A DNA stretch of 48,243 nt from sequence record PZ150741.1, one strand, 5' to 3'. Made by a program: the position numbers and the translations under genes. The first letter of the stretch is position 1; every line of letters begins with the position of its first letter. Below the pieces are notes generated by a model. The model did not search any database. It was not told where the DNA came from and worked only from the letters and a program-made list of their open reading frames with translations. Positions 1 through 47,054 of the stretch are shown piece after piece. The DNA is from a phage.

Positions 1-35
1 GGAGATGCAACAATACAAACACCAATAAAATTTAC

Positions 36-64
36 TTGCACACTAAGATAGAATATGCTACTAT
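36..64 (+). promoter_or_regulatory. sigma70-like promoter (TTGCAC-17 bp-TACTAT)
   Basis: -35 TTGCAC at 36-41, 17-bp spacer, -10 TACTAT at 59-64; followed by conserved leader AACGAGAGGAGAGG and ATG at 95. Confidence 0.6.
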
Positions 65-94
65 TCATTTACACAAACGAGAGGAGAGGCAGAT

Positions 95-244
95 ATGGTT
101 ACTTTGATGGTTATGGAGTTCGAAAACAGCACCGCAACTTACCGCGAGATGACTATGGCGCAGGCGTATCACCTGGCCTCAAACGGCAACTTCTACAAGG
201 CCCAAATCATCAACGAGTTCGGGGTAATTGACTATGAATTTTAA
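95..244 (+). CDS. hypothetical small protein (49 aa)
   Basis: ATG at 95 preceded by GAGGAGAGG Shine-Dalgarno; stop overlaps next start (ATGA); below the 60-aa ORF-track cutoff. Confidence 0.45.
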   Translation: MVTLMVMEFENSTATYREMTMAQAYHLASNGNFYKAQIINEFGVIDYEF

Positions 245-506
245 CAGTTACACCGTTACCGTTGATTTTGAGGGGCTGGAGCTGCCCCTCCCTAACAACT
301 ACCGGTATATCTCACGCGACTGTAACGGGTTTATTCAGGGGTGGCGGAACAAACCGACAGATACTGAGTTCGGGATGTCTGGCGGGGAAGAGTTGCCGAT
401 CACTTTCGGACATCAGAGTAGCAACGAAGAACTTAAAACCGTGATTCGTAAGTATCGCCGCCGCGGTAACACCGGACTTATAGCAATAACAGGCGCGGTT
501 GAATAA
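234..506 (+). CDS. hypothetical protein (90 aa)
   Basis: Track ORF 228-506; first ATG at 234 with GGGG upstream. Confidence 0.5.
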   Translation: MNFNSYTVTVDFEGLELPLPNNYRYISRDCNGFIQGWRNKPTDTEFGMSGGEELPITFGHQSSNEELKTVIRKYRRRGNTGLIAITGAVE

Positions 507-525
507 ACGAGAGGAGAGACAGAAG

Positions 526-744
526 ATGTTCCTGGAATGCAAATCCTATGAAGGCTATTGGGCGCTGACCAAAAACGACCTGTACCACCTCAAAGAAGAC
601 GGCGACGAGAGCCGCTGCTACATAATAGACGACAATGGCACTGAACTTGATGTCTATTACACCGGGTATGGTCGATGGGCGTTATTGGCGGACGATGACT
701 TTGTGTTCGAAGAATATAACGGAGAGGAGCCAGAAGATGAGTAA
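526..744 (+). CDS. hypothetical protein (72 aa)
   Basis: Track ORF 499-744; ATG at 526 preceded by AACGAGAGGAGAGACAGAAG leader/SD. Confidence 0.5.
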   Translation: MFLECKSYEGYWALTKNDLYHLKEDGDESRCYIIDDNGTELDVYYTGYGRWALLADDDFVFEEYNGEEPEDE

Positions 745-1339
745 CAAAAACGAAGTATTAGAATACCTGATTGACCAGCTACGGCAGCAGCTACCGGTAG
801 TAGATGTAATGGGTGAAATAAAACGGTGGAGCATAGACCGTAGTATTGCTGGCCGAGGTAACTATACCGAAGAGGAAAACGCCGTAATCGATGCTTACAT
901 CGGCCTGGAGCACAACCCATACAAGCAACAGTGCGAAGACCTGGCACATGAGGTGCAGTCACTCAAGAATCAGTTACGCGACGCTTCGGCGCTGGTGGCT
1001 GAGTTACAGAGCGACAACATTAAGAAATCTGAGCACATATCGCACCTGTCGGAACTGGTGGACGAGTTGATGGGGACTATAACGTTAATGAACGGGGACG
1101 TTGAGGCTTACAAAGTTCTACGCAAAGGTGGGTACGTGCCTGAGCAATCCGGTTGCCGTAAGGACGATACCCAGGAATGCGAGCATGAGTGGCGATGTGT
1201 GGTAGTTTTTGGGAATAGACTTGGGACCCCGTATTGCCGTAAATGTGGTGCGGCTAAACCTGAAGAATGCAAGCACGAATGGCAATTTTACGGAGTCGGG
1301 TTTCCTTGTATGTGCCTTAAATGCGGGTTAAAGAAATGA
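738..1339 (+). CDS. hypothetical protein, coiled-coil N-terminus and tandem Cys-rich zinc-ribbon-like C-terminus
   Basis: Track ORF 635-1339; ATG at 738 after GGAGAGGAG SD; C-terminus has two repeats of ECxHEW...CxKCG. Confidence 0.5.
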
Positions 1340-1539
1340 CCAGCATCCTTTTTATCTGGGTACTGTCTGCAGGTCAGATGCATCTGGCGGCATCAGAAAC
1401 GTTTTACTCGATGGAGGCGTGCCGGTCAGCGGCACGCGCCGCAGAGAACGCACACTTCCTGTTTCAGGGCGACAAGCCCAACGATTCAGAGGTACGCGCT
1501 ATCTGCTCACCTAAGCGACTTGGTAAACAGGAGAAGTGA
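1336..1539 (+). CDS. hypothetical small protein with hydrophobic signal-peptide-like N-terminus
   Basis: Track ORF 1321-1539; ATG at 1336 overlaps upstream stop (ATGA); N-terminus MTSILFIWVLSAGQMHLAAS. Confidence 0.4.
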   Translation: MTSILFIWVLSAGQMHLAASETFYSMEACRSAARAAENAHFLFQGDKPNDSEVRAICSPKRLGKQEK

Positions 1540-1541
1540 TT

Positions 1542-1790
1542 ATGGTTAAATTATACGCAGAGCGCGATTTAGAAATGCTCGACATGACTAACAATTACTA
1601 TTCAAGACATGTGATGGCTATGACGGAGGAAGGATTGAACAGTAAATCATCTATCGCTGCTGAGTTGGCGTACCGTGACTGGATTATTGATGAACAGCAA
1701 AAAGAGTTACAGAAATACAAAGACCAGTTCCCGGATTACGTCGAGTGCGCGAACTGTGGGTTGGTCACACATGTGGAAGGGGTAGAGTGA
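1542..1790 (+). CDS. hypothetical protein (82 aa)
   Basis: Track ORF 1536-1790; ATG at 1542 after AGGAGAAG. Confidence 0.45.
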   Translation: MVKLYAERDLEMLDMTNNYYSRHVMAMTEEGLNSKSSIAAELAYRDWIIDEQQKELQKYKDQFPDYVECANCGLVTHVEGVE

Positions 1791-1792
1791 TT

Positions 1793-2011
1793 ATGATATT
1801 CAGAGACCGTAGCAGCTTAAGAACACCGGATTGTCCTACGTTCGAGTTCGAAGACAAAGACGGAGATGTATGCTGTATTCAATTTTATAGAGACGATGAA
1901 GGTGAGTGCGGGCTTGTAGAGTTGCAGGTTTACAGTGAAACCGGTTGTGTTGTATTAAGTGCAGATGATGCGGAATCACTAGCTCGTAAGATACTTGAGG
2001 GCGTTAAATGA
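1793..2011 (+). CDS. hypothetical protein (72 aa)
   Basis: Track ORF 1745-2011; ATG at 1793 after GAAGGGG, follows upstream stop. Confidence 0.45.
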   Translation: MIFRDRSSLRTPDCPTFEFEDKDGDVCCIQFYRDDEGECGLVELQVYSETGCVVLSADDAESLARKILEGVK

Positions 2012-2301
2012 GCCTCGCAACTGACATCCTGAAACGAAGCGGCCTTGCGCCGCTGTCACCGAGAGCGAACACCCAAATATACAAGCGCCGCCGTAATGCG
2101 CTGTACCCCGAGATTCAGGCCAGACGCAAAGCTATCCGCGCCTGTGGATTCCAGAACGGGAAGGCCGTGAATCTCGGTGAGTTTAAAACACAGGAACGCG
2201 CAGCAATCGCTAACCGGTTATTTAATTACTGGAAATCGCTGGGGTACGATGATATTCCGACGAAACCACAGAGACGACAATACATCTGGAGACACAAATA
2301 A
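2008..2301 (+). CDS. hypothetical basic protein (97 aa)
   Basis: Track ORF; start overlaps upstream stop; Arg/Lys-rich. Confidence 0.45.
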   Translation: MSLATDILKRSGLAPLSPRANTQIYKRRRNALYPEIQARRKAIRACGFQNGKAVNLGEFKTQERAAIANRLFNYWKSLGYDDIPTKPQRRQYIWRHK

Positions 2302-2376
2302 ACAACTATTAGGATAATTCCTACCCGTGGTATCCTCCAGTTACTGCATACTTAATACGCACCTGGAGGATTCATC

Positions 2377-2685
2377 TTGGATAAATTTACTGAAACAGTG
2401 ACAGGCTGGCTTCTAGCTGCCGCGCTCGCCGGAGGGGTAATCGGACTACGACAACATAAGTCCGTTATTTCTGGCCCCACCGACGGCTTCTGCTTTATTG
2501 CTACTGGCTTCACTTGCGCCGTATTTGGTGCACCTCTTGCCGCTCAATGGTTCGGAATCACGGGCGACCGTGAAATCGCCGGGTTGGGCTTCATTATCGC
2601 TGTTCTCTGGATGCCTATCTATTCCCGTCTATCCAGTATCGTAGCCGGGGAATACATCGCACGTCGAGGAGGCACAGATGAATGA
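2377..2685 (+). CDS. holin-like membrane protein (about 3 TM segments)
   Basis: TTG start after GGAGGA; three hydrophobic segments; directly upstream of second membrane protein and endolysin. Confidence 0.45.
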   Translation: MDKFTETVTGWLLAAALAGGVIGLRQHKSVISGPTDGFCFIATGFTCAVFGAPLAAQWFGITGDREIAGLGFIIAVLWMPIYSRLSSIVAGEYIARRGGTDE

Positions 2686-2950
2686 GTTATTCTGGTTCGG
2701 CGGTATGCTGGCAATCGGGGGCACATCGCTGTTTAATGTGTACCACCCCAGCGTGGACGATGGGTTATTTGGTAGGGTGCTCTATATCCTGACAGCTATC
2801 GTCTGCGCCGCCGGATGTATCCACTTGCTACAGGGCAGCATGTCCCCGACGCTGCCTGAGACGTTAATCACATTAGTTGCGCTGCGCCAGATTCGCCAGG
2901 CGTGGTTGTCATACGGAGGACATAAGCGTGTCTCGAAATATTTCAGATAA
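2678..2950 (+). CDS. holin/antiholin-like membrane protein (2 TM segments)
   Basis: Two hydrophobic helices; overlaps both neighbours in the lysis cassette. Confidence 0.45.
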   Translation: MNELFWFGGMLAIGGTSLFNVYHPSVDDGLFGRVLYILTAIVCAAGCIHLLQGSMSPTLPETLITLVALRQIRQAWLSYGGHKRVSKYFR

Positions 2951-3416
2951 TGGGTTGCATTTTACCGCTGCGTTCGAGGGATTCCGCGGAACTGCGTATC
3001 GTGCTACGCCGAACGAGAAGTACCTGACTATAGGCTATGGAAGCTACGGTCCGCATGTTAAGGCGGGGCAAACCATCACGCCTGGTCAGGGCTTACTATT
3101 ACTTAATCGCGATATGGCTAAAGCCGTAGTTGCGGTTGATGCGGCGGCGCACCACTCATTGACACAGGCGCAGTTCGATGCAGTGTGCGACCTGGTGTAT
3201 AACGCGGGTGCCGGAGTGATTGCGGCTACTACTGGCACAGGTAAGGCACTGCGTTCTGGCGATATTGCGACACTGCGGGCTAAGCTGGCGCTGTTCATCA
3301 ACCAGAACGGCAAACCGTTACTTGGCTTACGTCGTCGCGTAGCTGGTCGCCTGGCGCTGTTCGACGGTAAACCGTGGCAGGAGGCGGAGGCTATTGGACG
3401 TGCGGTGAAAGGTTGA
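2928..3416 (+). CDS. endolysin, GH24 lysozyme (T4/P22 lysozyme-like)
   Basis: GTG at 2928 after GGAGGA; motifs ISDNG, FEGF...YLTIGYG, QFDAVCDLVYNAG, RRRVAGRLALF resemble P22 gp19/T4 e lysozymes. Confidence 0.85.
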   Translation: MSRNISDNGLHFTAAFEGFRGTAYRATPNEKYLTIGYGSYGPHVKAGQTITPGQGLLLLNRDMAKAVVAVDAAAHHSLTQAQFDAVCDLVYNAGAGVIAATTGTGKALRSGDIATLRAKLALFINQNGKPLLGLRRRVAGRLALFDGKPWQEAEAIGRAVKG

Positions 3417-3480
3417 CACATAAGACTAATCCGACGATACTTAAATCACCTCCTGCTCCATCCCTCTGCTCTCCAGTTTT

Positions 3481-3512
3481 ATCCCGGCCCTGACCCAGCC
3501 GGGATTTTTTTT
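3481..3512 (+). terminator. rho-independent terminator after lysis cassette
   Basis: Hairpin ATCCCGGC-CCTGACCCA-GCCGGGAT followed by T8 run. Confidence 0.8.
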
Positions 3513-3534
3513 ATCTATTTTCTGTAATGAATAG

Positions 3535-3563
3535 TTGACTATTACTCTGACCCCAATTATATT
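3535..3563 (+). promoter_or_regulatory. sigma70-like promoter (TTGACT-17 bp-TATATT)
   Basis: Immediately downstream of terminator; followed by AACGAGAACGGAG leader and ATG at 3598. Confidence 0.55.
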
Positions 3564-3597
3564 TACTTCATCGACAACGAGAACGGAGTAGAGAGAA

Positions 3598-3846
3598 ATG
3601 GGCAACGTATCGACGATAGAAATAACCGAAGAACTCGAAGATAAATGCATCGCATGGACTATGGATAATGACCCGGTTGCTATGTGTAAATTTCCAATGA
3701 AAATCACAGATACCGAAGCATTCAAAGACGCACAACTGATGGCACGCATCGCCGTTAGTAACCTGAGCAATAGCATTCCAGCGGACGCGTTCTGGTTCGC
3801 CGCAATGCAGACACTGAAAGCAGCTTATGCAGGAGAGAAGAAATGA
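3598..3846 (+). CDS. hypothetical protein (82 aa)
   Basis: Track ORF; strong SD GGAGTAGAGAGAA. Confidence 0.5.
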   Translation: MGNVSTIEITEELEDKCIAWTMDNDPVAMCKFPMKITDTEAFKDAQLMARIAVSNLSNSIPADAFWFAAMQTLKAAYAGEKK

Positions 3847-4046
3847 ACAACGTCACCGTTGGCGGCATTTATAAGAGTCGTCACTCTTGGAATGAGGGTG
3901 CAAGATTCATTGTAACCGCGGTTGGGTTGGACCACGTGCTTATCGCGGACCACCCATTGATAAAATTCAATGAATCCTATTTGGAATATTGTGTTGGTAG
4001 AAAGGAGTTCGAGACTAAATTTAAGTTTGCAGGAGAGAAGAAATGA
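3843..4046 (+). CDS. hypothetical protein (67 aa)
   Basis: Track ORF; ATGA overlap; SD AGGAGAGAAG. Confidence 0.5.
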   Translation: MNNVTVGGIYKSRHSWNEGARFIVTAVGLDHVLIADHPLIKFNESYLEYCVGRKEFETKFKFAGEKK

Positions 4047-4201
4047 GTGAACAAGGTCAAGTAAGCCAGCCACTACGAGTAGGCCGTAAAGTCAGTCGCA
4101 CCCCGTTCCCGACACGCGAGGAACTGATGAAACGTAACAGTTTCCCGGGGCCGGACAAGAACAAGTATCTCAATCGTATGTGGGGAGAGCGTAAAGAATG
4201 A
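4043..4201 (+). CDS. hypothetical small protein (52 aa)
   Basis: ATG at 4043 after AGGAGAGAAG; ATGA overlap with next gene; below track cutoff. Confidence 0.4.
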   Translation: MSEQGQVSQPLRVGRKVSRTPFPTREELMKRNSFPGPDKNKYLNRMWGERKE

Positions 4202-4368
4202 AAAAGTTAATTGCAGATGTTGAACTCGGTGATGTTATTCGTATTGATGACGACTACGGCGGCTACGACGTAGTGGTGAAGCACATCGAGTGGGATTCTA
4301 CGTTGCCATTTGTCACGATTAACCGTGAAATAATGTTCACTAAAACTGATTGGGTAGAGGTTCGATAA
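4198..4368 (+). CDS. hypothetical small protein (56 aa)
   Basis: ATG at 4198 after GGGGAGAG; below track cutoff. Confidence 0.4.
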   Translation: MKKLIADVELGDVIRIDDDYGGYDVVVKHIEWDSTLPFVTINREIMFTKTDWVEVR

Positions 4369-4541
4369 TGACTAACAACGAATACGAGAAACTTAGCGTA
4401 GAAGCGGCGACCGGTGAATCTGAAATAGCGTGGATTGACGCCAACATCGAGCACTACCTACGGCAAGTAGACATCCTTATGGAACGCCGCCGTGAACTGA
4501 TTAACCGCTTCAACCTGAACAAAGGTGACGCCAATGCCTAA
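4368..4541 (+). CDS. hypothetical protein (57 aa)
   Basis: Track ORF 4350-4541; ATG at 4368 overlaps upstream TAA. Confidence 0.45.
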   Translation: MTNNEYEKLSVEAATGESEIAWIDANIEHYLRQVDILMERRRELINRFNLNKGDANA

Positions 4542-4719
4542 AATCACAATTGCATCACTAGAGCGCCGTATTCTGGTGCTCGAGTCAGAGAAACAGACGT
4601 TAGGCGGTCAACTGTCGATTAACGGCGAGTTTCAACTGGAGGCGTTTAAGATGCTACTTGAACGCATGAAGGACGAGGAAGATTGGGCGCATTCCTTGCA
4701 AGACCTCTGGCAATACTAA
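4534..4719 (+). CDS. hypothetical coiled-coil protein (61 aa)
   Basis: Track ORF 4525-4719; ATG at 4534 after AAAGGTGA. Confidence 0.45.
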   Translation: MPKITIASLERRILVLESEKQTLGGQLSINGEFQLEAFKMLLERMKDEEDWAHSLQDLWQY

Positions 4720-4721
4720 AC

Positions 4722-4904
4722 ATGAAATCGCCTGAGCCAGTAGTTATCGATGGCGTCCTGTGGAAACCTTACTCGGTTAACCACATCGACGCCGACGGGA
4801 AGAAGTTCAGCTTCTACATTTTTGCAATTAGCCGTGAGCACGCCGCTTGTGTGGTCGATGATATACGAGAAACGGCGTGGCTCGGTGATGAGATAGTGGG
4901 GTGA
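4722..4904 (+). CDS. hypothetical protein (60 aa)
   Basis: Track ORF 4683-4904; ATG at 4722 just after upstream stop; TTG at 4683 is an alternative start. Confidence 0.4.
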   Translation: MKSPEPVVIDGVLWKPYSVNHIDADGKKFSFYIFAISREHAACVVDDIRETAWLGDEIVG

Positions 4905-4908
4905 GAGT

Positions 4909-4992
4909 ATGAATCTCGAGGTGGTTATCGGTCTGGTAGGTCTTAGCTACTTCATCGGGTTGTTGGTTGGCTTTCTGTGGGGTAGATACTAA
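4909..4992 (+). CDS. possible 27-aa single-TM peptide
   Basis: ATG at 4909, hydrophobic MNLEVVIGLVGLSYFIGLLVGFLWGRY, stop overlaps next start. Confidence 0.25.
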   Translation: MNLEVVIGLVGLSYFIGLLVGFLWGRY

Positions 4993-5273
4993 TGGCGCGT
5001 ACTGTTTCCGCGAGATTCACTGATATCGAATCCGCTATAGAAGAAGCCGTTTATTGTAGATTTTGCAACCCCTCCGCAGTACATAACTACGGAGTTATTG
5101 TTAAATACGGCAAGTTTGAGGTTAGAAGGGTGCGCGCCGACCGTCCGTACGAGTTTTTATGGACAACAGAAAGCCTCATCCCGCGGTGCCACATTTACAC
5201 AAGCGGTGCACATACGATTTTTGTAGACCTTAACAAGAAAGATATTACCGTCACTAAAGGAGAGACAAATTGA
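4992..5273 (+). CDS. hypothetical protein (93 aa)
   Basis: Track ORF; SD GGGGTAG upstream. Confidence 0.45.
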   Translation: MARTVSARFTDIESAIEEAVYCRFCNPSAVHNYGVIVKYGKFEVRRVRADRPYEFLWTTESLIPRCHIYTSGAHTIFVDLNKKDITVTKGETN

Positions 5274-5506
5274 TTACCAGCATCCCTGAACTGATTGAAG
5301 AGTACGGAAGTATGTCGGAGACCTGCCGACAAACCGGTATCTGCGAAATGACGATTGCCAAGTACAGCAAAGACGTGAACTGCGAGCGCCACGTAATCTA
5401 TAACAACCGTCTGATGACGCACGTTAAGACAAGCCCGGTGTTATTCACGCGCCGGGGTATCACTAAAACTGAGCAACGTATTACCAGAGGGGAGAGGGGG
5501 GAATGA
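5270..5506 (+). CDS. hypothetical protein, possible HTH
   Basis: Track ORF with non-ATG start; segment SETCRQTGICEMTIAKYS resembles helix-turn-helix; start uncertain. Confidence 0.35.
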   Translation: MITSIPELIEEYGSMSETCRQTGICEMTIAKYSKDVNCERHVIYNNRLMTHVKTSPVLFTRRGITKTEQRITRGERGE

Positions 5507-5609
5507 GACTGTTAATCGTCCCTAACGCCTGGGTTATTGCCGTAGCTAACGACCATTACGGCGGCGATGGTAAAAGAGCCTCACGACACGGCCTATACAA
5601 CTGATGCAA

Positions 5610-5630
5610 GCCCTCTACGGAGGGTTTTCT
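5610..5630 (+). terminator. weak terminator-like hairpin at early/late boundary
   Basis: CCCTC-TACG-GAGGG followed by TTTTCT. Confidence 0.35.
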
Positions 5631-5724
5631 GTACATCCCGCCCAATCCCCTTATATAATCCCTTTAGACGCGTAGGGCGCGTCTGGTGCGCTCTGATGGT
5701 CAGACGCATATGCAAGGGGATTCT

Positions 5725-6270
5725 ATGAAGCTGAAACTCAAGCAGCCATCGCCAGAGGTGGTGCAAGCTGCACATGAAGAAGCTGTTAGCGCAAACCGTC
5801 GCCGTAAACGACCGCGCGGTAAACAGAGCCTTTATCAATCATCCCGTAATTCCGCCGCGTTGTGGGACCCGGACTATTGCGACGCGTTAATCGAGTTCTT
5901 CGACCGCACGTCGTGGGAACTTGTGCCTACGTCTAAGGGCGACGAACGCCCGCTGATTCAGGATAAGCCACCATCACTGGCCCGCTTCGCCTTACACATC
6001 GGCGTCACTATACCGATTATTAAGCTGTGGTTGCGCGAGATTCCCGCATTTGCAGAAGCTTGGGAGACAGCACAGGCGCTGGAGGAGGCGTACTTCACTG
6101 AGACAGGCGCAGCAGGCATCTCTGCTACGTTCGCTGCCGCTAAGCTGGGCCTCAGCAAAGAGAAACCGGTGGAATCTACCGAAGAAACGGCACCGACCGA
6201 GATTGTTTTCAGTGTTGCAGAGCCTGTAGGTAAGATAGTAACAACGAACATGGGCGAGGCAGAGGAATGA
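5725..6270 (+). CDS. terS: terminase small subunit (putative)
   Basis: Immediately upstream of and ATGA-overlapping terL; ATG at 5725 after AAGGGGA; basic N-terminus and HTH-like segment. Confidence 0.55.
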   Translation: MKLKLKQPSPEVVQAAHEEAVSANRRRKRPRGKQSLYQSSRNSAALWDPDYCDALIEFFDRTSWELVPTSKGDERPLIQDKPPSLARFALHIGVTIPIIKLWLREIPAFAEAWETAQALEEAYFTETGAAGISATFAAAKLGLSKEKPVESTEETAPTEIVFSVAEPVGKIVTTNMGEAEE

Positions 6271-7517
6271 GTATTCAGCTATCCGCACCACAGGCTTTGT
6301 TTCTGAACTGCGATAACAAATACAAAGCCTACGTCGGCGGCTTCGGCAGCGGCAAGACATTTGTTGGCTGCCTTGACCTGCTTACGTTCATGCTCAAACA
6401 TCCCGGTACGCGCCTCGGATACTTTGGCCCTACATATCCGGCTATCCGTGACATCTTCTACCCGACATTCGAGGAAGCGGCTAACCTGCTTGGCCTTGAT
6501 GTGCTGGTTAAATCCGGCGACAAAGAAGTCGTGGTTACTCGCGGTAAGACGGTGCTCGGGACAGTTATCTGCCGTTCTATGGATAACCCGGGGTCTATCG
6601 TTGGTTTCAAAATCGCTGCTGCAGTCGTCGACGAGTTGGACGTACTGAGCCGCGAGAAGGCCGAACTGGCGTGGAACAAAATCGTAGCCCGTATGCGACT
6701 TGTTATTCCTGGCGTAATTAACCACATCTCCGTCACCACGACACCGGAAGGGTTCAAGTTCGTCTTCGCCAAGTTCAAAGATAACCCGACGCCGAGCTAC
6801 TCAATGGTGCAGGCATCAACTCACGAGAACGCGCGATTCCTGCCGTCTGACTACATTAGCTCGCTGACCGAGACTTACCCGGCGCAACTGATTAACGCGT
6901 ACCTGAATGGTGAGTTCGTCAACCTGACCTCCGGCAGCGTCTACTACGCCTACGACCGCCGTAAGCACCGCAGCAAAGAGACAATTCAACCTGGCGACAC
7001 GCTGTACATCGGGCAGGACTTCAACGTTACGAAGAACGCCAGCGCCGTTTATGTGCAGCGTAAAGACGGCTGGCACGCGGTAGCAGAGCTGAAAGGTCTG
7101 TTCGATACGCCGGATACTGTGCGCGTAATTACTGAGAAGTGGAAGTCACATGGGCACCGCATCGTCGTTTACCCTGACGCCAGCGGCAAGAACCGCAAGA
7201 CCAACTCGGCATCAATCTCTGATATCGCGTTACTCCAGCAGGCCGGGTTCGATGTTCGCGCTAAATCTGCCAACCCCCCGGTTAAAGACCGTGTTTTAGC
7301 CGTGAATACCGCACTGGAAAAAGGTAAGCTGTGGGTTAACGACCACTTATGCCCCGAGATAGCGAAGACGCTGGAGCAGCAGGCGTACGACGATAACGGC
7401 GAGCCGGCTAAAGACGGCGTTATTGACCATATGGCGGATGCTCTAGGCTATCCTGTAGTTTACGAGATGCCGGTGGTTAAACCAGTAATCAATACCCCAG
7501 TTCGTTTCGCACTTTAA
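6267..7517 (+). CDS. terL: terminase large subunit
   Basis: Walker A GGFGSGKT, Walker B VVDELD, acidic nuclease-domain residues in C-terminal half; 416 aa. Confidence 0.9.
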   Translation: MSIQLSAPQALFLNCDNKYKAYVGGFGSGKTFVGCLDLLTFMLKHPGTRLGYFGPTYPAIRDIFYPTFEEAANLLGLDVLVKSGDKEVVVTRGKTVLGTVICRSMDNPGSIVGFKIAAAVVDELDVLSREKAELAWNKIVARMRLVIPGVINHISVTTTPEGFKFVFAKFKDNPTPSYSMVQASTHENARFLPSDYISSLTETYPAQLINAYLNGEFVNLTSGSVYYAYDRRKHRSKETIQPGDTLYIGQDFNVTKNASAVYVQRKDGWHAVAELKGLFDTPDTVRVITEKWKSHGHRIVVYPDASGKNRKTNSASISDIALLQQAGFDVRAKSANPPVKDRVLAVNTALEKGKLWVNDHLCPEIAKTLEQQAYDDNGEPAKDGVIDHMADALGYPVVYEMPVVKPVINTPVRFAL

Positions 7518-9021: not shown

Positions 9022-9044
9022 AGCCCCGAAAGGGGCTTTCTTAT
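9022..9044 (+). terminator. hairpin AGCCCC-GAAA-GGGGCT plus T-rich tail
   Basis: Perfect 6-bp GC stem with GAAA tetraloop after portal stop. Confidence 0.5.
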
Positions 9045-9047
9045 AGT

Positions 9048-10124
9048 ATGCTATTAACTTTAGCGCCACAGGGTTTATCTATGAGCTTACTTACATCCCT
9101 AATCAGCCACCAGATTTGGCTGCAACGCACCGCATCAGGCGAGGTGAAAGACCTCGCACCGTTCATTCAGGAAATGCGAGACGAAATCAAACGGCAGGTG
9201 CTGTTGTTCGGTGACGACGGGCGAAGCACTGCGCGGCTGAATAAACTATTACGCGACCTGGAAGAAGCACTGACCGGACTTACAGGTGACTGGCAGACAA
9301 AGCTGATAGAAGACCTTAAGGAACTGGCGGCGTATGAAGCAGAGTGGAACGTAAAGACACTGGCAGCCAACGTAGATGCGGAATTTGTTACGCCTACCGC
9401 TGAACAGGTGTGGGCCGCTGCCGAGTTTCAGCCATTATCGTTAAGCGACAAGCCTGTTGACTTCACTAAGCTGATGTCGGGATGGGGTGAAACCGAAATA
9501 GCACGTCTTGTAACCGGCGTTAAGATGGGCTTTGTCCAAGGCCAGACTACACGGCAGATTGTTAAGAATGTTGTTGGCGCCGGCGGGCTGGCGGACATCA
9601 CTGAACGTAATGCAGCTACGGTAATCCGCACCGCGCTGTCTCACGTATCCAACGAAGCGCGTAACGAGACGTATAGGCAGAACGACGACATCATCGAGAA
9701 ATATGAATGGGTTTCGACGCTGGACAGCCGTACCAGTACGATTTGCAGGGCCAGAGATGGAATGACGTGGGAAATCGATAAAGGGCCGATACCCCCCGCC
9801 CATCCGAACTGTCGAAGTACCACTGCACCCGTAATAAGTTCTGAGTTCGACTTCCTCGATAAAGGGGCGAAACGCGCGGCTAAGGGCGCAGACGGCGGTA
9901 CTCAGGTAAGCGCAGATACCACTTATTACGAGTTCCTGAAACAGCAACCGGCGTGGTTTCAGGACCAGGCGCTCGGCCCTGTTCGCGGTAAGATTTTCCG
10001 TAACAGCGGTATATCGCCGGAAGAGTTTCGCGTAATATCTGTAGATGGTTTCGGGAATCCGCTCACGCTTAAGCAGATGGCGGAACTCGATAAACGTGTT
10101 GCTGATTATCTGAAAGGGGATTAA
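9048..10124 (+). CDS. head morphogenesis protein (Mu F / SPP1 gp7-like)
   Basis: Conserved C-terminal motif STICRARDG...PPAHPNCRST typical of the MuF family; position after portal. Confidence 0.8.
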   Translation: MLLTLAPQGLSMSLLTSLISHQIWLQRTASGEVKDLAPFIQEMRDEIKRQVLLFGDDGRSTARLNKLLRDLEEALTGLTGDWQTKLIEDLKELAAYEAEWNVKTLAANVDAEFVTPTAEQVWAAAEFQPLSLSDKPVDFTKLMSGWGETEIARLVTGVKMGFVQGQTTRQIVKNVVGAGGLADITERNAATVIRTALSHVSNEARNETYRQNDDIIEKYEWVSTLDSRTSTICRARDGMTWEIDKGPIPPAHPNCRSTTAPVISSEFDFLDKGAKRAAKGADGGTQVSADTTYYEFLKQQPAWFQDQALGPVRGKIFRNSGISPEEFRVISVDGFGNPLTLKQMAELDKRVADYLKGD

Positions 10125-10585
10125 TGATGGGCTTTTTCAAAGTAACTGATGTGCCGTCGCGTCGCGTAGTTCAGTACGCCCGAGTGTCTGGCTCCGGTGA
10201 GAACGTGGTGTTTATTGAAGATGAAAGCGTACTGGGTACACCTGTAGACGATATGCCGTTTGCAGATAAAACCGGTATTTCGCTGCCCGCGGCTGGTATG
10301 CTTTACGAGATTCCGTATCTGGCGGACGCTGGCGACGTGTATTTCTCTGCGCAACCGAAAGACACGGAACTGACGAACGGCAGCGCAACTATCACTGTCG
10401 AAGTTAAGGCAGGCAAAGCGCCATATGCGTTGACCTGGTACAAAGACGGTAAGGAAGTGGTAAACGCCCCGGAAGAGGCTTTGTCTCTGACGGTCAATTC
10501 GGCCGGTGAATACTTCGTTAAAGTCACAGATGCCGATGGAGTAGAGGCTGTGAGTAAAGCGGCGAAGGTTACTAAGCCAGAATGA
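10124..10585 (+). CDS. Ig-like domain protein (possible capsid decoration)
   Basis: C-terminal YALTWYKDGKEV...GEYFVKVTDADG pattern typical of I-set/Big-type Ig domains; ATGA overlap with MuF gene. Confidence 0.5.
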   Translation: MMGFFKVTDVPSRRVVQYARVSGSGENVVFIEDESVLGTPVDDMPFADKTGISLPAAGMLYEIPYLADAGDVYFSAQPKDTELTNGSATITVEVKAGKAPYALTWYKDGKEVVNAPEEALSLTVNSAGEYFVKVTDADGVEAVSKAAKVTKPE

Positions 10586-10586
10586 T

Positions 10587-10614
10587 AAAAGGCCCCTTTC
10601 GGGGCCTTAGTTTT
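10587..10614. terminator. bidirectional terminator AAGGCCCC-TTTC-GGGGCCTT
   Basis: 8-bp GC stem flanked by A-run and T-run; lies between convergent genes. Confidence 0.8.
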
Positions 10615-10837
10615 AAACTTCCACGTCTATCACCAAATCACCAGGCATGGTTATGACTATTTTATCGTTTTCATAGAACGGGCTAAGAGGCTCATTTTCA
10701 GACTGCAAACGTAAAGTTAGCTTTTTACCACCAAAATAATCTATGTAACGAACCCAGTACCACTCATCGAATACCTGTACCTTTTCTCCCGGGAGTACAT
10801 CTCTAGCTTTCTTTTGGTTCATAAATCTAATCGGCAT
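10613..10837 (-). CDS. hypothetical protein (74 aa), reverse-oriented accessory gene
   Basis: Track ORF with GGAGG SD; own promoter upstream and terminator downstream. Confidence 0.55.
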   Translation of the reverse strand: MPIRFMNQKKARDVLPGEKVQVFDEWYWVRYIDYFGGKKLTLRLQSENEPLSPFYENDKIVITMPGDLVIDVEV

Positions 10838-10863
10838 AAATACCTCCTGTTTAAGTTGGCTGA

Positions 10864-10892
10864 ATAGTACCCTATTATGTTGGGGTGCGCAA
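10864..10892 (-). promoter_or_regulatory. sigma70-like promoter (TTGCGC-17 bp-TACTAT) for 10613-10837
   Basis: Reverse complement reads TTGCGCACCCCAACATAATAGGGTACTAT; near-identical to promoters at 19711 and 42572. Confidence 0.65.
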
Positions 10893-10958
10893 ACTATTTA
10901 TTTACCCATTCCAGTTATTACACCAAAGTGTAAATGATGGAATAAACTATTCGAATAG

Positions 10959-26827: not shown

Positions 26828-29194
26828 ATGTCAAGCGGATGCGGTGACGTTTTAAGCCTGGCGGATTTACAAACCGCCAAGAAGCACCAGATTTTTGAAG
26901 CTGAAGTTATCACAGGTAAATCTGGCGGAGTAGCCGGCGGTGCTGATATTGATTACGCGACAAACCAGGTTACAGGGCAGACCCAGAAGACGTTACCCGC
27001 CGTGTTGCGTGACGCGGGATTTTCTCCAGTGTCATGGGACTTTTCGACCGGCGGCACGCTAACTGTTAATGACCGCGACAAAGTTGTCTATGACCCGGTT
27101 AGCAAAACATGGTACTCGTACGCCGGCACTCTGCCTGTTACGGTTCCAGCTGGTTTTAACCCTGTGGGTAATGCGGATTGGAAACCGCAGACAGACCCCG
27201 ATTTGCGTCATGACATAAAAACTAACGGTCTTGACGGGGTTGTTATTACATCCGCAACGACGCAAGAAATATCCCTCCTTAATTTCACAAGTGGGAAAGT
27301 GCAGCTAACCGACAGAGACAATTGCTTGTTTGAAGTATTACCTCCTGGAACGGCAACGCCAGATGGGTATGCGTATTTGGGTATGCCTAACGGTTATGTT
27401 CTTGCGCTACTTGATTCAAATGGCTCTTACAATGTGCGCGGAGCTGGTGCTGTCGGAGATGGTTACAACGATGATGGTCTACCTATCGCAAGCCTTGTTA
27501 AAAGAGCGATGCAGACAAAAAAAGGGGATTTTGTATTTCCTGCAGTCGGCGCTGGGGAATCCTATGTCCTCAAGACCCCTGTAGATTTAATTTTTTCCAG
27601 TGCGACAATAGACCCGCCATCATTCACTTTTCGCGGGGTAGGTTCGGTTAATGGTCTCAGTATGCAGACTCGAATCGCCCACATTCGCGAAACGTACGGT
27701 ATAAAGCAGCGTAATATTGGAGCAACTTACCGTGACTTTCAGGCTATTGTATACTGCGGAGCACCTGCAAACATTATCAGCACCGGAGTTAACACCATTA
27801 CTCTGGACAGGAACCCATTCGGCGGAAATGGTGGCACCCCTGTAACATGGAATAGCACTGTTACTGCCGGAGATGGCACGCAGTATAGCTCTGGTTACGT
27901 CCAATTCGCGACAAACGCCGGTAGTTTTTATGCAAGCTCTTTCACGGATAATGGTGATGGAACATACACATTCGGCAATGTTAGACATGTAACATCTGCG
28001 TCAACCGACCTGACAACAAGCACACGAATTGTGCGTTTTTCATGCCGTGCACACTTTGAACCATCTGATGGCGGTAAATATCCAACCCCATCTGGTTATG
28101 CTGTTACCGCTGGTTTTATTTGGGCTGATACTCTTGAGAACATCCATATCGATCATGTTTGGTTTCTTCAACAGTTAAGATGTGTGGTACATGATTTGGG
28201 CGCTGGTGGCAGTGGTGATTCAGGGATAGGTAACATAGGTACTGTATCCAACGTAATCGTTGACGGGGCTTTCTCTTTTATGACCAACACCGATTTGTCG
28301 GCCTCGAGCGCACAGTCACTTAACGGCGGACATTTTTCCAACGTTCAGTTTTATTCTGTTAGGGCGCCATTTGTAGGGCGAAGAATACAGAATATTAACA
28401 TGGCTTCATTGCAATTATTTAGTTCAGATGGCCTGTTCTTTGCGCGTGATATTTCTCATGTGGCTATCCCAGGTGCAATATTGGGCTGGGACGGTACAAC
28501 AGGATTCTGTAAAAATATTGTTGTTTGTGAAAACATAGAAGATGCTAACTTCGGTTCATGTGTATTTGGGCGACACCAACACTCAACTCCAGTCATGACG
28601 TTTAACTCAGTTAACGGGCTATCTCTGGTCGGCGCAACACTCGGTACTGTATCTGAGGGTGCCACCGTCGGGGCGTGGATGTATGTAACAGGGAGCAACT
28701 ATAATATATCGGGGTTGAATATTTCAGTATCAATAGCGCACTTAACCGGTTCAGGAAGAAATGAATTGACGCTTTTAGCGGAAGATACGACAACAACTTC
28801 TGTTAACATGTTACGAAATAAATTTAGTTCTCGTGTTTATACAAATATCGCTAGAGACCTGAGAGATTACGACAGCACATCTGGTTTTTACGGTTATCTA
28901 TATTCAGGGGGCTCACCAAATGGTGGTTACAGCTTTGCTTTTAGTGTTGATGTATCTAGCTGGACACCATCTCTGAAAAGGAAGGCGATAAAACTTGGCG
29001 GGGCATTGACGTCTTCTGTGTCAAAAACTCTGCCAAGCGCCATAACTGAACCCGATAACGCTTCTGATTTTATAATAGATACCTCGTCTGTAGCACTTGG
29101 TTCTTACACGCTTACAGTATCAGGGTATACTTTAACCGCAGGAGTGCATGTGTTTAAGTGGGTCGGTTCATGGATACTGGTGTCCAGCAAATAA
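26828..29194 (+). CDS. tailspike / tail fiber protein with probable beta-helix receptor-binding domain
   Basis: 788-aa last late gene; N-terminal region resembles conserved siphovirus tailspike anchor domains; Gly/Ser/Thr/Asn-rich body. Confidence 0.55.
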   Translation: MSSGCGDVLSLADLQTAKKHQIFEAEVITGKSGGVAGGADIDYATNQVTGQTQKTLPAVLRDAGFSPVSWDFSTGGTLTVNDRDKVVYDPVSKTWYSYAGTLPVTVPAGFNPVGNADWKPQTDPDLRHDIKTNGLDGVVITSATTQEISLLNFTSGKVQLTDRDNCLFEVLPPGTATPDGYAYLGMPNGYVLALLDSNGSYNVRGAGAVGDGYNDDGLPIASLVKRAMQTKKGDFVFPAVGAGESYVLKTPVDLIFSSATIDPPSFTFRGVGSVNGLSMQTRIAHIRETYGIKQRNIGATYRDFQAIVYCGAPANIISTGVNTITLDRNPFGGNGGTPVTWNSTVTAGDGTQYSSGYVQFATNAGSFYASSFTDNGDGTYTFGNVRHVTSASTDLTTSTRIVRFSCRAHFEPSDGGKYPTPSGYAVTAGFIWADTLENIHIDHVWFLQQLRCVVHDLGAGGSGDSGIGNIGTVSNVIVDGAFSFMTNTDLSASSAQSLNGGHFSNVQFYSVRAPFVGRRIQNINMASLQLFSSDGLFFARDISHVAIPGAILGWDGTTGFCKNIVVCENIEDANFGSCVFGRHQHSTPVMTFNSVNGLSLVGATLGTVSEGATVGAWMYVTGSNYNISGLNISVSIAHLTGSGRNELTLLAEDTTTTSVNMLRNKFSSRVYTNIARDLRDYDSTSGFYGYLYSGGSPNGGYSFAFSVDVSSWTPSLKRKAIKLGGALTSSVSKTLPSAITEPDNASDFIIDTSSVALGSYTLTVSGYTLTAGVHVFKWVGSWILVSSK

Positions 29195-29195
29195 A

Positions 29196-29224
29196 ACTAA
29201 GGCCCCTTTCGGGGCCTTTTCTCT
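29196..29224. terminator. bidirectional terminator AAGGCCCC-TTTC-GGGGCCTT
   Basis: Third copy of the same hairpin; separates convergent late and replication blocks. Confidence 0.8.
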
Positions 29225-29360
29225 ACTCTTCTGTTAACTTCTCCAGTACAAACGCCAGTTGCGCATTAGCAGCATCTCTCTGTTGCCGTAGTCGTAGAAC
29301 CTCTTCCTCGAGTTCCTTGATACGTTTTTGCAATGCTGGAATCGGGGCTATGATGTTCAT
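29223..29360 (-). CDS. possible small coiled-coil protein (45 aa)
   Basis: ATG overlaps stop of Toprim gene (ATGA); ends at terminator; below track cutoff. Confidence 0.3.
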   Translation of the reverse strand: MNIIAPIPALQKRIKELEEEVLRLRQQRDAANAQLAFVLEKLTEE

Positions 29361-29872
29361 CTGGTAAATTTCCTCGCAAGATACGTTATTTCTTCTTTAC
29401 AAAGCTCATCAAGGTCGTTAGATACAAATCCTCTGGTGAATGTTTTGCTGAACTTTAATCCAGCTTTATCATTGTCCCCAGCGCACACCCAGTCATACGG
29501 CAAAAGTGACATTTGCTGCCGTAGGTCTGTTGGTATATTTGACCCAAGTGCGCTTACGGCATTGAACCCGCAATTCATCAAAGCAACAGCTTTAAATATG
29601 CTTTCGGTGACAAATACCACCCCGCTACTTGGCAGATACTCAAGTCCCCATAAACACGGCCTTGTTGTTCGGGTAAAGTACCGCGCGTCTTTAGGGTTTT
29701 TACAGTTCTTTTCCGCATGTGGCTTGTAATGCTGGTATCCTCGTAGCCTACCGTCAAAGCCCCACAAGTAGAATGTAGCGACGCCAGGGGCTAAGACTAC
29801 ACGTAAACGGTCTGCGTCAAAACCTCGTGACAGCAGATGCGCCTTAAGTAGAAACTCCTCACCGTCAGTCAT
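29357..29872 (-). CDS. Toprim-domain protein (primase/topoisomerase-like catalytic core)
   Basis: VFVTESIF Glu motif and CAGDNDKAG DxD motif at Toprim-typical spacing. Confidence 0.5.
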   Translation of the reverse strand: MTDGEEFLLKAHLLSRGFDADRLRVVLAPGVATFYLWGFDGRLRGYQHYKPHAEKNCKNPKDARYFTRTTRPCLWGLEYLPSSGVVFVTESIFKAVALMNCGFNAVSALGSNIPTDLRQQMSLLPYDWVCAGDNDKAGLKFSKTFTRGFVSNDLDELCKEEITYLARKFTR

Positions 29873-32203: not shown

Positions 32204-32391
32204 TTCGCCACCAGAACTAACTCTTTACGCCCGAATGCCGTAACGTTGCCCGTTACATCTTCGATAACCAGTTTACCGTTCGACTCGACGTACACCGTAT
32301 CAACGGCAACCGGCTGGCGGGTTTTAACGTTGAAAATCATGTCGCCTGGTACGATGTCACGTGCCGGTTTGCGGTCATATTCGTGTTTCAT
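32200..32391 (-). CDS. hypothetical small protein (63 aa)
   Basis: Track ORF, overlapping stop/start with methyltransferase gene. Confidence 0.45.
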   Translation of the reverse strand: MKHEYDRKPARDIVPGDMIFNVKTRQPVAVDTVYVESNGKLVIEDVTGNVTAFGRKELVLVAK

Positions 32392-32405
32392 TTCTCAATT
32401 CCTTA

Positions 32406-32699
32406 TCAGTATATTAATTCGTTTATTTTCTTATCCAGAGATTCTTTTGAGTAAAAGAAACCCATGTGTCTTCCTTTAAATACGAGCCTGTACACATTTT
32501 CCCCGTCTTCGGTAATAGAAAGGAAAACCTTACAACTAGTTCGGAACTCTCTTACTTTGTCACCAAACGCCAATTGCTCCCATTTTACTAAAGGAAATTC
32601 TTTTAACATATTAGTGTACAAGTCATTCGCGGTAGCCACTAAACCCGCATCTAACAGTACGGCGATTCTCTGTGCGTAATCTAAAAGGACCTTATTCAT
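32406..32699 (-). CDS. hypothetical protein (97 aa)
   Basis: Track ORF immediately downstream of near-consensus promoter. Confidence 0.5.
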   Translation of the reverse strand: MNKVLLDYAQRIAVLLDAGLVATANDLYTNMLKEFPLVKWEQLAFGDKVREFRTSCKVFLSITEDGENVYRLVFKGRHMGFFYSKESLDKKINELIY

Positions 32700-32729
32700 T
32701 TCTCAATTCCTTATATTGTTGGTGTACGG

Positions 32730-33014
32730 TTAACTATAATAGTTAGCTATTATGTCGTCAACCTGTTTAAACGAACCAACGACAAAAACATTCGCGCCAC
32801 GTTTACGCATCCGCTCATGTTCACGTAACTGGTGCGGGTCTGGCTTCGTGTTTTCATCTTTCTTAACCTCGACAAACCAGACGATGCCGTCGGGGAGGAT
32901 TACCAGCAGGTCGGGAGCGCCGGAGCGCCCCTCGTAGGAGAGTTTGCGAACGAGGCCCCCCAGGGCCTCGAATCGCTCTTTTGCGTATTTCTGTATTTTG
33001 CCTTCCGGGGTCAT
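32730..33014 (-). CDS. VRR-NUC domain nuclease (PD-(D/E)XK)
   Basis: Track ORF 32730-33029; motif PDLLVILPDG...FVEVKK; start probably ATG 33014. Confidence 0.6.
   Translation of the reverse strand: MTPEGKIQKYAKERFEALGGLVRKLSYEGRSGAPDLLVILPDGIVWFVEVKKDENTKPDPHQLREHERMRKRGANVFVVGSFKQVDDIIANYYS
32733..32761 (-). promoter_or_regulatory. sigma70-like promoter (TTGACG-17 bp-TATAGT)
   Basis: Reverse complement TTGACGACATAATAGCTAACTATTATAGT; member of leftward early promoter family. Confidence 0.65.
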
Positions 33015-36457: not shown

Positions 36458-36523
36458 CTTGATTTCTCGCTTTTCAGTTTATATTTCAAAGTTTACTCCG
36501 GGAACTGCCCGGCCAGTGATTTA

Positions 36524-36552
36524 ACTATAATAGCTTACTATTCAGGTGTCAA
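36524..36552 (-). promoter_or_regulatory. sigma70 consensus promoter (TTGACA-17 bp-TATAGT)
   Basis: Reverse complement TTGACACCTGAATAGTAAGCTATTATAGT; palindrome CCGGGCAGTTCCCGG in the leader. Confidence 0.7.
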
Positions 36553-39083: not shown

Positions 39084-39114
39084 TTGTTTCTCTCCTCTCG
39101 TTTGGTATGGGCTA

Positions 39115-39143
39115 ACTATAATAGCGAACTATTCACATGTCAA
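39115..39143 (-). promoter_or_regulatory. sigma70 consensus promoter (TTGACA-17 bp-TATAGT)
   Basis: Reverse complement TTGACATGTGAATAGTTCGCTATTATAGT. Confidence 0.7.
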
Positions 39144-42571: not shown

Positions 42572-42600
42572 TTGCACACCCCAACATAATAGGATACTAT
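42572..42600 (+). promoter_or_regulatory. sigma70-like promoter (TTGCAC-17 bp-TACTAT)
   Basis: TTGCACACCCCAACATAATAGGATACTAT; followed by AACGAGACAGAGGAG leader and ATG 42635. Confidence 0.65.
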
Positions 42601-42634
42601 TCACTTATCGAAACGAGACAGAGGAGTGAGGGTT

Positions 42635-43530: not shown

Positions 43531-43611
43531 TTTTTGTTCTATTTCACGAAACGCAACAATTGAAGCTACTATTGCAGGAGATGCAACAATACAAACACCA
43601 ATAAAATTTAC

Positions 43612-43640
43612 TTGCACACTAAGATAGAATATGCTACTAT
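43612..43640 (+). promoter_or_regulatory. sigma70-like promoter, copy of 36-64
   Basis: Duplicate within repeat. Confidence 0.6.
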
Positions 43641-43670
43641 TCATTTACACAAACGAGAGGAGAGGCAGAT

Positions 43671-43820
43671 ATGGTTACTTTGATGGTTATGGAGTTCGAA
43701 AACAGCACCGCAACTTACCGCGAGATGACTATGGCGCAGGCGTATCACCTGGCCTCAAACGGCAACTTCTACAAGGCCCAAATCATCAACGAGTTCGGGG
43801 TAATTGACTATGAATTTTAA
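43671..43820 (+). CDS. hypothetical small protein (copy of 95-244)
   Basis: Duplicate within repeat. Confidence 0.45.
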   Translation: MVTLMVMEFENSTATYREMTMAQAYHLASNGNFYKAQIINEFGVIDYEF

Positions 43821-44082
43821 CAGTTACACCGTTACCGTTGATTTTGAGGGGCTGGAGCTGCCCCTCCCTAACAACTACCGGTATATCTCACGCGACTGTA
43901 ACGGGTTTATTCAGGGGTGGCGGAACAAACCGACAGATACTGAGTTCGGGATGTCTGGCGGGGAAGAGTTGCCGATCACTTTCGGACATCAGAGTAGCAA
44001 CGAAGAACTTAAAACCGTGATTCGTAAGTATCGCCGCCGCGGTAACACCGGACTTATAGCAATAACAGGCGCGGTTGAATAA
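43810..44082 (+). CDS. hypothetical protein (copy of 234-506)
   Basis: Duplicate within repeat. Confidence 0.5.
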   Translation: MNFNSYTVTVDFEGLELPLPNNYRYISRDCNGFIQGWRNKPTDTEFGMSGGEELPITFGHQSSNEELKTVIRKYRRRGNTGLIAITGAVE

Positions 44083-44101
44083 ACGAGAGGAGAGACAGAA
44101 G

Positions 44102-44320
44102 ATGTTCCTGGAATGCAAATCCTATGAAGGCTATTGGGCGCTGACCAAAAACGACCTGTACCACCTCAAAGAAGACGGCGACGAGAGCCGCTGCTACATA
44201 ATAGACGACAATGGCACTGAACTTGATGTCTATTACACCGGGTATGGTCGATGGGCGTTATTGGCGGACGATGACTTTGTGTTCGAAGAATATAACGGAG
44301 AGGAGCCAGAAGATGAGTAA
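44102..44320 (+). CDS. hypothetical protein (copy of 526-744)
   Basis: Duplicate within repeat. Confidence 0.5.
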   Translation: MFLECKSYEGYWALTKNDLYHLKEDGDESRCYIIDDNGTELDVYYTGYGRWALLADDDFVFEEYNGEEPEDE

Positions 44321-44915: not shown

Positions 44916-45115
44916 CCAGCATCCTTTTTATCTGGGTACTGTCTGCAGGTCAGATGCATCTGGCGGCATCAGAAACGTTTTACTCGATGGAGGCGTGCCG
45001 GTCAGCGGCACGCGCCGCAGAGAACGCACACTTCCTGTTTCAGGGCGACAAGCCCAACGATTCAGAGGTACGCGCTATCTGCTCACCTAAGCGACTTGGT
45101 AAACAGGAGAAGTGA
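44912..45115 (+). CDS. hypothetical small protein (copy of 1336-1539)
   Basis: Duplicate within repeat. Confidence 0.4.
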   Translation: MTSILFIWVLSAGQMHLAASETFYSMEACRSAARAAENAHFLFQGDKPNDSEVRAICSPKRLGKQEK

Positions 45116-45117
45116 TT

Positions 45118-45366: not shown

Positions 45367-45368
45367 TT

Positions 45369-45877: not shown

Positions 45878-45952
45878 ACAACTATTAGGATAATTCCTAC
45901 CCGTGGTATCCTCCAGTTACTGCATACTTAATACGCACCTGGAGGATTCATC

Positions 45953-46990: not shown

Positions 46991-47054
46991 CACATAAGAC
47001 TAATCCGACGATACTTAAATCACCTCCTGCTCCATCCCTCTGCTCTCCAGTTTT

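Follow-up and report, generated by a model that had tools for sequence, protein, structure and literature searches.

Bidirectional intrinsic terminators between convergent genes are reportedly pervasive in E. coli, as Ju, Li and Liu are said to have found in 2019, and phage morons are said to have been described by Juhala et al. in 2000 as promoter-gene-terminator units between late genes. Terminators of the former kind are also treated in bioRxiv 10.1101/2022.10.23.513370, and morons are reviewed in PMC3594210. Closer to the present case, Pas et al. (2023; PMC10408124) reported a conserved 20-nt terminator, “motif three,” downstream of tailspikes and proposed it as a recombination hotspot; it was found in Gamaleya-, Kutter- and Justusliebigviruses and in single Kayfuna- and Nouzillyviruses, but not in Kagunavirus. 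For the Guernseyvirinae themselves, 13 rho-independent terminators have been predicted in a Kagunavirus genome paper (PMC7203180), the one transcriptome paper on the subfamily did not map terminators, and no transcript 3'-end maps (Term-seq) were found in the literature on it. In the GenBank record of phage SETP3 (EF177456.2), two overlapping rho-independent terminators are annotated at tailspike/ORF33.

The sequence considered here (“the window,” 48,243 nt, record PZ150741.1) comes from a Kagunavirus-like (Guernseyvirinae) siphophage with about 90% identity to the E. coli phages K1ind2 and Bas74. An earlier note on it had pointed to one hairpin recurring at three junctions of transcription units, and had suggested that beyond terminating transcription the copies could act as short homology for the exchange of accessory islands. 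Like the E. coli bidirectional terminators, these hairpins combine a perfect GC-rich palindrome, a tetraloop, A- and T-tracts, converging stop codons, and a predicted equal fold on either strand; there is no essential difference, except that here activity is predicted and that one stem is used at all three junctions. One of the three occupies the position orthologous to the SETP3 terminators and has the same AAGGCCCC stem, and the two overlapping annotations in SETP3 are consistent with two-way action; in SETP3-like genomes, however, the flanks differ and the loop is GTAA rather than TTTC. Both islands resemble morons in lying on the opposite strand within the late region, each with a terminator and a promoter-like element of its own (a putative promoter), and differ from them in that, among the closer, Kagunavirus-like relatives, the signals are fixed in the backbone and only the ORFs change. 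The hypothesis attached to motif three, which can be compared by description only, is that of the earlier note, whereas here a tailspike receptor-binding domain (RBD) transfer that could be traced took place without a shared terminator. The idea of a terminator as a recombination hotspot has thus already been published for other genera (Pas et al., 2023; PMC10408124), and the element itself is an ordinary, already known kind of signal, part of standard phage gene punctuation.

Sequence and comparison set

Relatives were taken from IMG/VR (about 130 related loci) by searching with the tube and helicase proteins, and gene context was read from ORFs, the annotated relative Bas74, and PHROG/Pfam matches. 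The window overlaps itself by 4.67 kb, positions 1-4667 being the same as 43577-48243 except for three bases (CG at 2985-2986 and T at 3505) that the second copy lacks, so that the genome is about 43.6 kb. Owing to the deleted bases, the ORF calls in the endolysin region differ between the two copies (2877-3416, 179 aa, versus 46526-46990, 154 aa); the differences could be sequencing or assembly errors, or could come from a heterogeneous concatemer or terminal repeat.

Three copies of one hairpin unit

The 20-mer AAGGCCCCTTTCGGGGCCTT has three exact copies on the + strand of the window, at 10589-10608 (J1), 17900-17919 (J2), and 29199-29218 (J3). The same hairpin had indeed been noted at three sites, but with the third copy at 29202-29219 and with a form shorter by 1 nt; the exact match shifts the third copy, and all three are full 20-mers. 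No chance copy appeared in 100 dinucleotide-preserving shuffles with up to two mismatches tolerated. The core GCCCC-N3-7-GGGGC, for which the chance expectation is 0.13, occurs in the window at the three sites and otherwise only at 9023-9036, where it belongs to a shorter related hairpin, AGCCCC-GAAA-GGGGCT followed by TTCTTAT (9022-9037, + strand). This hairpin is placed between two co-directional genes, portal and head-morphogenesis, and is probably a one-way terminator or attenuator within the late operon.

The likeness extends beyond the 20-mer. Copies 2 and 3 are identical over about 30-33 nt including flanks (ATAAAACTAAGGCCCCTTTCGGGGCCTTTTCTC), and the flanks of copy 1 are the same but inverted (reverse complement TAAAACTAAGGCCCCGAAAGGGGCCTTTTATC): allowing for this inversion, the repeated unit is TAA-AAC-TAA-GGCCCC-loop-GGGGCC-TTTT. 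Its layout across both strands is TAAAACTAAGGCCCC-NNNN-GGGGCCTTTT, with an A-tract upstream and a T-tract downstream; the stronger T-tract is the one read at the end of the island gene at J1, and at the end of the late gene at the other two junctions. As unstranded features, the full units span 10584-10615 at J1 (stem AAGGCCCC/GGGGCCTT, loop TTTC on the + strand and GAAA on the - strand), 17893-17924 at J2 (TAAAACT-hairpin-TTTTC), and 29192-29224 at J3.

Genes at the junctions

ORFs, Bas74 and PHROG/Pfam agree with the earlier placement of all three copies between convergent units, two of them separating late genes from accessory islands and the third separating late genes from the replication block. 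At J1, the late unit ends with a Hoc-like head decoration gene (10124-10585, + strand; phrog_3945, E 6.5e-86; homologue Bas74_0005), whose stop codon precedes the hairpin by 3 nt; 4 nt beyond the hairpin is the stop of a 74-aa - strand gene (10613-10837; phrog_8705), the variable cassette of the J1 slot. Few GenBank phages carry this gene, namely three distinct Kagunavirus (Ro145clw, Ro145c2YLVW, and ZCEC5), and in relatives the slot is filled with other cargo that begins directly after the hairpin unit.

At J2, a tail tube or “minor tail” gene (16723-17895, + strand; phrog_290, annotated as tail tube in several relatives) converges on a - strand island (17924-19695) in which ORFs and PHROG/Pfam matches distinguish two small ORFs, a metallophosphoesterase or “DNA repair exonuclease” gene (18320-19450, - strand), and a superinfection-immunity gene (19489-19695, - strand) that is a moron in the Bas74 annotation. 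In relatives this island can be as short as 90 nt or as long as 3138 nt, and breakpoints inside it fall at 18090, 18320, and 19482. Of the two small ORFs, that of 76 aa (18093-18323, - strand) matches only the C-terminal third of the 235-residue profile phrog_2452, and that of 72 aa (17924-18142, - strand), which overlaps it, belongs to no family; the region is probably the remnant of a truncated gene, and in relatives whose J2 islands are longer, its place seems to be taken by another gene of greater length.

At J3, the late unit ends with the tailspike gene (26828-29194, + strand), whose receptor-binding part (about 27065/27306 to 29194) is a cassette that has been exchanged; the 3' ends of tailspikes in relatives diverge as far as the TAA stop that opens the J3 unit. 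Facing it, 4 nt from the hairpin, is a 45-aa ORF (29223-29360, - strand; homologue Bas74_0033), the last gene of the replication block, whose 3' end (TTTTCTCTACTCTTCT on the + strand) is kept in Kagunavirus relatives; beyond it come the helicase gene and the remainder of the block. Next to the 45-aa ORF, a 171-aa ORF (29357-29872, - strand) matches primase and Toprim profiles in their middle only, and the slot that it occupies, between the helicase gene and the 45-aa ORF, measures 138-678 nt among relatives.

Predicted bidirectional termination

Each copy is flanked by two converging genes, whose stop codons are 3-7 nt away, and can form a stem of 8 bp (6 G-C and 2 A-U) with a 4-nt loop, the same on either strand. 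With flanks, the predicted folds come to -15.4 to -16.3 kcal/mol on both strands at the three sites (at J1, -15.9 on the + strand and -16.3 on the - strand), and by loop the hairpin folds at -14.9 (UUUC) or -15.8 (GAAA) kcal/mol. Among the 8 nt directly following the stem, four to five are U, again on both strands at all three sites. A scan for consensus terminators lists all three on the - strand, the + strand tails being slightly weaker; at J1, the + strand U-tract is broken (UUAGUUUUA), so that termination on this strand may be only moderately efficient.

Of 45 relatives, 32 have the very same 8-bp stem at the position orthologous to J1, as do 46 of 60 at that orthologous to J2, and the stem AAGGCCCC/GGGGCCTT follows diverse tailspikes (J3) in most Kagunavirus and Jerseyvirus-like loci. 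The J3 count of 48 of 48 comes from a pattern-guided search and is biased, an unbiased hairpin scan having found AAAGGGCC or GGGGC stems in its place in a few relatives. At all three junctions, retention in most relatives extends down to about 65% identity of the tube protein. Different terminators at these junctions in relatives, which the earlier note had named as the observation that would tell against its exchange idea, were not encountered within the subfamily. The loops, on the other hand, vary in sequence and in length (4-6 nt): variants include ATTAA, GTTAT, and TTGAC at J1, TTTC or GAAA at J2, and AAAC, GTTT, or GTAA at J3. Where distant relatives have other stems, the substitutions are paired (GGGGCC/GGCCCC, GGGCC/GGCCC, GCCCCC/GGGGGC), and RNAalifold recovers a consensus hairpin from 43 distinct J2 sequences with compensatory changes at five of seven pairs, for example C-G to G-C in nine of them; such changes imply selection on pairing.

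Sequence, position, predicted fold, conservation, and covariation together argue strongly that the three 20-mers are bidirectional intrinsic terminators at three convergent junctions, a reading in which the predicted activity is in all likelihood real; the terminator role and boundary placement proposed earlier are thus supported by the fold, U-rich tails, conservation, and neighboring stop codons. With a palindromic stem set between an A-tract and a T-tract, RNA from either strand would form the 8-bp stem and 4-nt loop followed by a U-rich tract, and RNA polymerase would be released at the hairpin whichever direction it came from. Release from either side would in turn spare the islands and the replication block antisense read-through from the late genes, and the reverse.

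Exact conservation of the stem across two genera whose neighboring proteins are 65-70% identical exceeds what stability strictly requires, leaving room for an additional constraint. Could the palindrome then be primarily a DNA-level site (for protein binding, replication, or packaging) that only has the appearance of a terminator? The stem is unusually invariant within Kagunavirus and Jerseyvirus, a point in favor of such a site, but the loop is free to vary in sequence, length, and orientation, and the compensatory changes keep pairing rather than sequence. The constant placement, with converging stop codons on both sides and an A-tract and a T-tract as flanks, also speaks for transcription, as does the ubiquity of the palindrome in unrelated genomes; no Rfam family matches the window (0 matches over its whole length at the gathering score). 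A DNA-level site is therefore scarcely credible as the primary role, and the hairpins are treated below as predicted two-way terminators.

Origin of the three identical copies

How distinctive is the 20-mer? It occurs exactly at no fewer than 120 loci in IMG/VR, 94 of which, among the matches listed, have no other homology to the window; the unrelated loci among these listed matches share the layout of A-tract, hairpin, and T-tract. Among bacteria (one genome per species), at least 120 contigs from many phyla carry it, and the matches listed include Collinsella, Pseudomonas, Shewanella, Akkermansia, Bacteroidota, and Chloroflexia. A control with the arms swapped (AAGGGGCCTTTCGGCCCCTT) also has at least 120 matches and is as abundant as the 20-mer among the matches listed, both counts being lower bounds from which true frequencies cannot be compared, whereas a mixed-GC control stem of equal GC content (AAGCGGCGTTTCCGCCGCTT) has zero. 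This pattern indicates that GGCCCC/GGGGCC with a TTTC or GAAA loop is a preferred terminator word, and by its distribution in sequence collections it is a generic one that has evolved repeatedly. Use of GGCCCC as a lineage marker was considered and rejected, the abundance of the arms-swapped stem pointing to a general preference. An example from outside the subfamily is the unrelated Skatevirus Bas79, which has a 36-nt match where an SSB gene and a tail fibre gene converge. The motif search that the earlier note had recommended thus finds the 20-mer widespread as such, but, among the matches listed from the viral and bacterial collections, mostly in unrelated contexts; with so generic a word, identity between copies is no evidence of exchange.

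The three copies might alternatively come from a spreading short repeat (MITE- or REP-like) or be kept alike by ongoing gene conversion. In line with spreading, J2 and J3 have about 33 nt in common including flanks, J1 is the same unit inverted, and one 8-bp stem is used at all three sites while other terminators in the genome use different stems. The sites, however, are orthologous and occupied across two genera, so that the copies must be old rather than recently spread; there are no target-site duplications and no additional copies in the window; the word arises in unrelated phages and bacteria as well; and hairpin-plus-flank variants cluster by junction rather than by genome, albeit in a small sample. 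A mobile repeat was accordingly rejected, the window containing no further copies or near-copies and the sites being orthologous across genera.

Among the 34 genomes in which all three sites were recovered, the window alone has three identical loops, and permutation of loops among these genomes gave no excess of within-genome identity (P 0.2-0.9), the identity between sites being what permutation leads one to expect; a single genome with a triple loop match is itself within chance (P about 0.2). Concerted evolution was rejected on this comparison of J1, J2, and J3 loops with permutations, and a common origin by spreading or conversion is altogether very improbable. The triple identity in the window reflects instead a very common stem, used across the subfamily at all three sites, together with fast-changing loops that happen to coincide.

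A promoter-like repeat and two apparent expression slots

The other end of each island is marked by a second repeat, 32 nt long, with the sequence TTGC(G/A)CACCCCAACATAATAGG(G/A)TACTATTCA. A repeat search places it at the upstream end of the J1 island (10861-10892, - strand), at the upstream end of the J2 island (19708-19739, - strand; 97% identical to the first), and at the head of a + strand block starting near 42626 (42572-42603, + strand). It is a putative promoter, matching 8 of 12 sigma-70 consensus positions, a degree of match that also explains its absence from the consensus scan. With up to seven mismatches allowed, it was recognized in 23 of 52 J1 islands, always about 300-340 nt ahead of the next late gene, and in 31 of 78 J2 islands, always about 100 nt ahead of the tail assembly chaperone gene; this distance is fixed regardless of island length, and the carriers are essentially the closer relatives. 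Homology with relatives resumes close by, at 10842-10908 on the J1 side and 19693-19707 on the J2 side.

Since the 32-mer and the hairpin stay in place while the cargo is diverse, the islands look like fixed promoter-terminator slots with changing contents rather than self-contained units that move with their own signals; gain or loss of a whole unit including its signals, as in morons, was not seen among the closer, Kagunavirus-like relatives. The hairpin is part of the conserved backbone and, with the promoter-like repeat, frames a pair of fixed slots for expression in which the cargo ORFs turn over in the course of evolution; at J3 it closes a tailspike gene whose receptor-binding part is swapped too. 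As natural insulated slots, each with a promoter-like element and a predicted two-way terminator, the islands may be useful for annotating Kagunavirus transcription units and for engineering. A second promoter-like family in the window, TTGACA-N17-TATAGT with a common AATAG core, is found at 32731-32761, 36522-36552, and 39113-39143.

Loop inversions

Between some near-identical genomes the loop is the exact reverse complement, in the pairs L156/L157 and L211/L240 and at the window positions 17908-17911 (J2) and 29207-29210 (J3). TTTC and GAAA are found in a ratio of 25:14 at J2, and AAAC and GTTT in a ratio of 17:8 at J3, and the flips are seen between nearest neighbors with 99% identical flanks. 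No description of loop inversion in phage terminators was found in the literature searched. In chloroplast non-coding DNA, hairpin loops enclosed by short inverted repeats are well known to undergo minute inversions (PMC2903610); the phage loops are like these in occurring in both orientations (TTTC/GAAA, AAAC/GTTT) within near-identical surroundings, and unlike them in belonging to phage terminators. By this analogy, the flips look like recurrent minute inversions of the chloroplast type.

Does the hairpin take part in exchange?

Apart from its predicted role in termination, the hairpin unit might also serve as short homology, or as a template-switch site, for the exchange of islands and tailspikes between co-infecting phages. 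The alignment of related phages that the earlier note had called for does show homology to the approximately 130 relatives breaking within a few nt of the unit: 19 HSP ends fall at 10613-10618, about 29 at 17919-17930, and 29 at 29189-29199. Pile-ups of HSP ends are nevertheless equal or larger at gene borders that have no hairpin, for example at 32400, 34575, and 37400. Diverse cargo genes begin or end at the TAA stop embedded in the unit, and the promoter-like 32-mer, likewise a conserved repeat, marks the other end of each island; yet at every junction the side that is conserved is where an essential gene ends, and selection against breakpoints within such a gene would give the same pattern.

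The cargo itself points both ways. The metallophosphoesterase gene occupies the J2 slot in the window phage and most relatives but directly adjoins the J1 hairpin in two more distant relatives of one lineage (L163, 2228-3343; L193, 2245-3360), which would be in keeping with movement between slots. It is the only cargo common to J1 and J2, all other cross matches between them being to the promoter-like repeat, and the J1 cargo of the window has a distant homologue, its sole match outside the subfamily, in an operon of Klebsiella phage KP13-27 that has no hairpin.

As to mechanism, Bas74 homologues imply a Gp2.5-like annealing protein and an exonuclease in the window phage, and the reverse-complement flips of loops between 99% identical flanks indicate that the palindrome is prone to template switching; these flips are the sole mechanistic hint for cassette exchange by that route. 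Against this, the loops are not homogenized within the 34 genomes, and the 20-mer is generic. The same proposal has been made for another terminator motif (Pas et al., 2023; PMC10408124).

The clearest single case is that of the tailspike. Positions 27306-29194 of the window match 4559-6447 of a 146.5-kb myovirus-like metagenomic contig (L515), which has baseplate genes and several tailspikes, at 95.5% nucleotide identity over 1889 nt; the matched tailspike is of 1148 aa. In GenBank phages, the receptor-binding region has only 32%-identical relatives, in Vibrio phages, and by these comparisons it looks like a recent cross-family transfer of a rare domain. The match ends precisely with the stop codon (29194), and the contig has a different terminator, AACCCCGCTTCGGCGGGGTT, 24 nt downstream: the crossover of this traceable RBD transfer was not inside a shared motif, and the transfer took place without use of the hairpin.

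Of the exchange proposal, then, the part that stands is that breakpoints adjoin the hairpin and that one gene can be found in either slot; the shared homology is not required for this, and is contradicted in the one case that can be traced. A role of the hairpin in recombination is weakly supported, neither needed nor demonstrated, and at most that of an occasional contributor; as an addition to its predicted terminator function it is unlikely, though it has some chance of being right. Longer odds attach to a fuller model for the Guernseyvirinae, in which two or three slots, each framed by the 32-mer and the palindrome, would have foreign ORFs swapped in, out, and from slot to slot, with a preference for the palindrome, by copy-choice template switching in the course of replication, an integrase-free form of cassette exchange (no integrase is included in the annotation of the relative Bas74); the recurrent loop flips would be its visible trace. 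If the hairpin were a preferred crossover site, it would provide a sequence basis for the swapping of anti-defence or exclusion genes and of tailspikes in small virulent siphophages, and would be relevant to host-range design for phage therapy.

Other short repeats accompany gene borders in this genome. Exact repeats of 19-20 nt, comprising ribosome-binding site and start codon, are found at gene starts (32387-32406 equals 32695-32714; 3828-3846 equals 4028-4046), and HSP ends also accumulate beside them, at 32400-32424 and 32675-32699, which suggests that conserved punctuation at mosaic borders is general rather than specific to the hairpin. Within the tailspike gene, a stretch of 52 nt (27157-27208) has a further match, in the next tailspike gene of the same metagenomic contig, and may, by analogy, correspond to the anchor-end motif of Pas et al.
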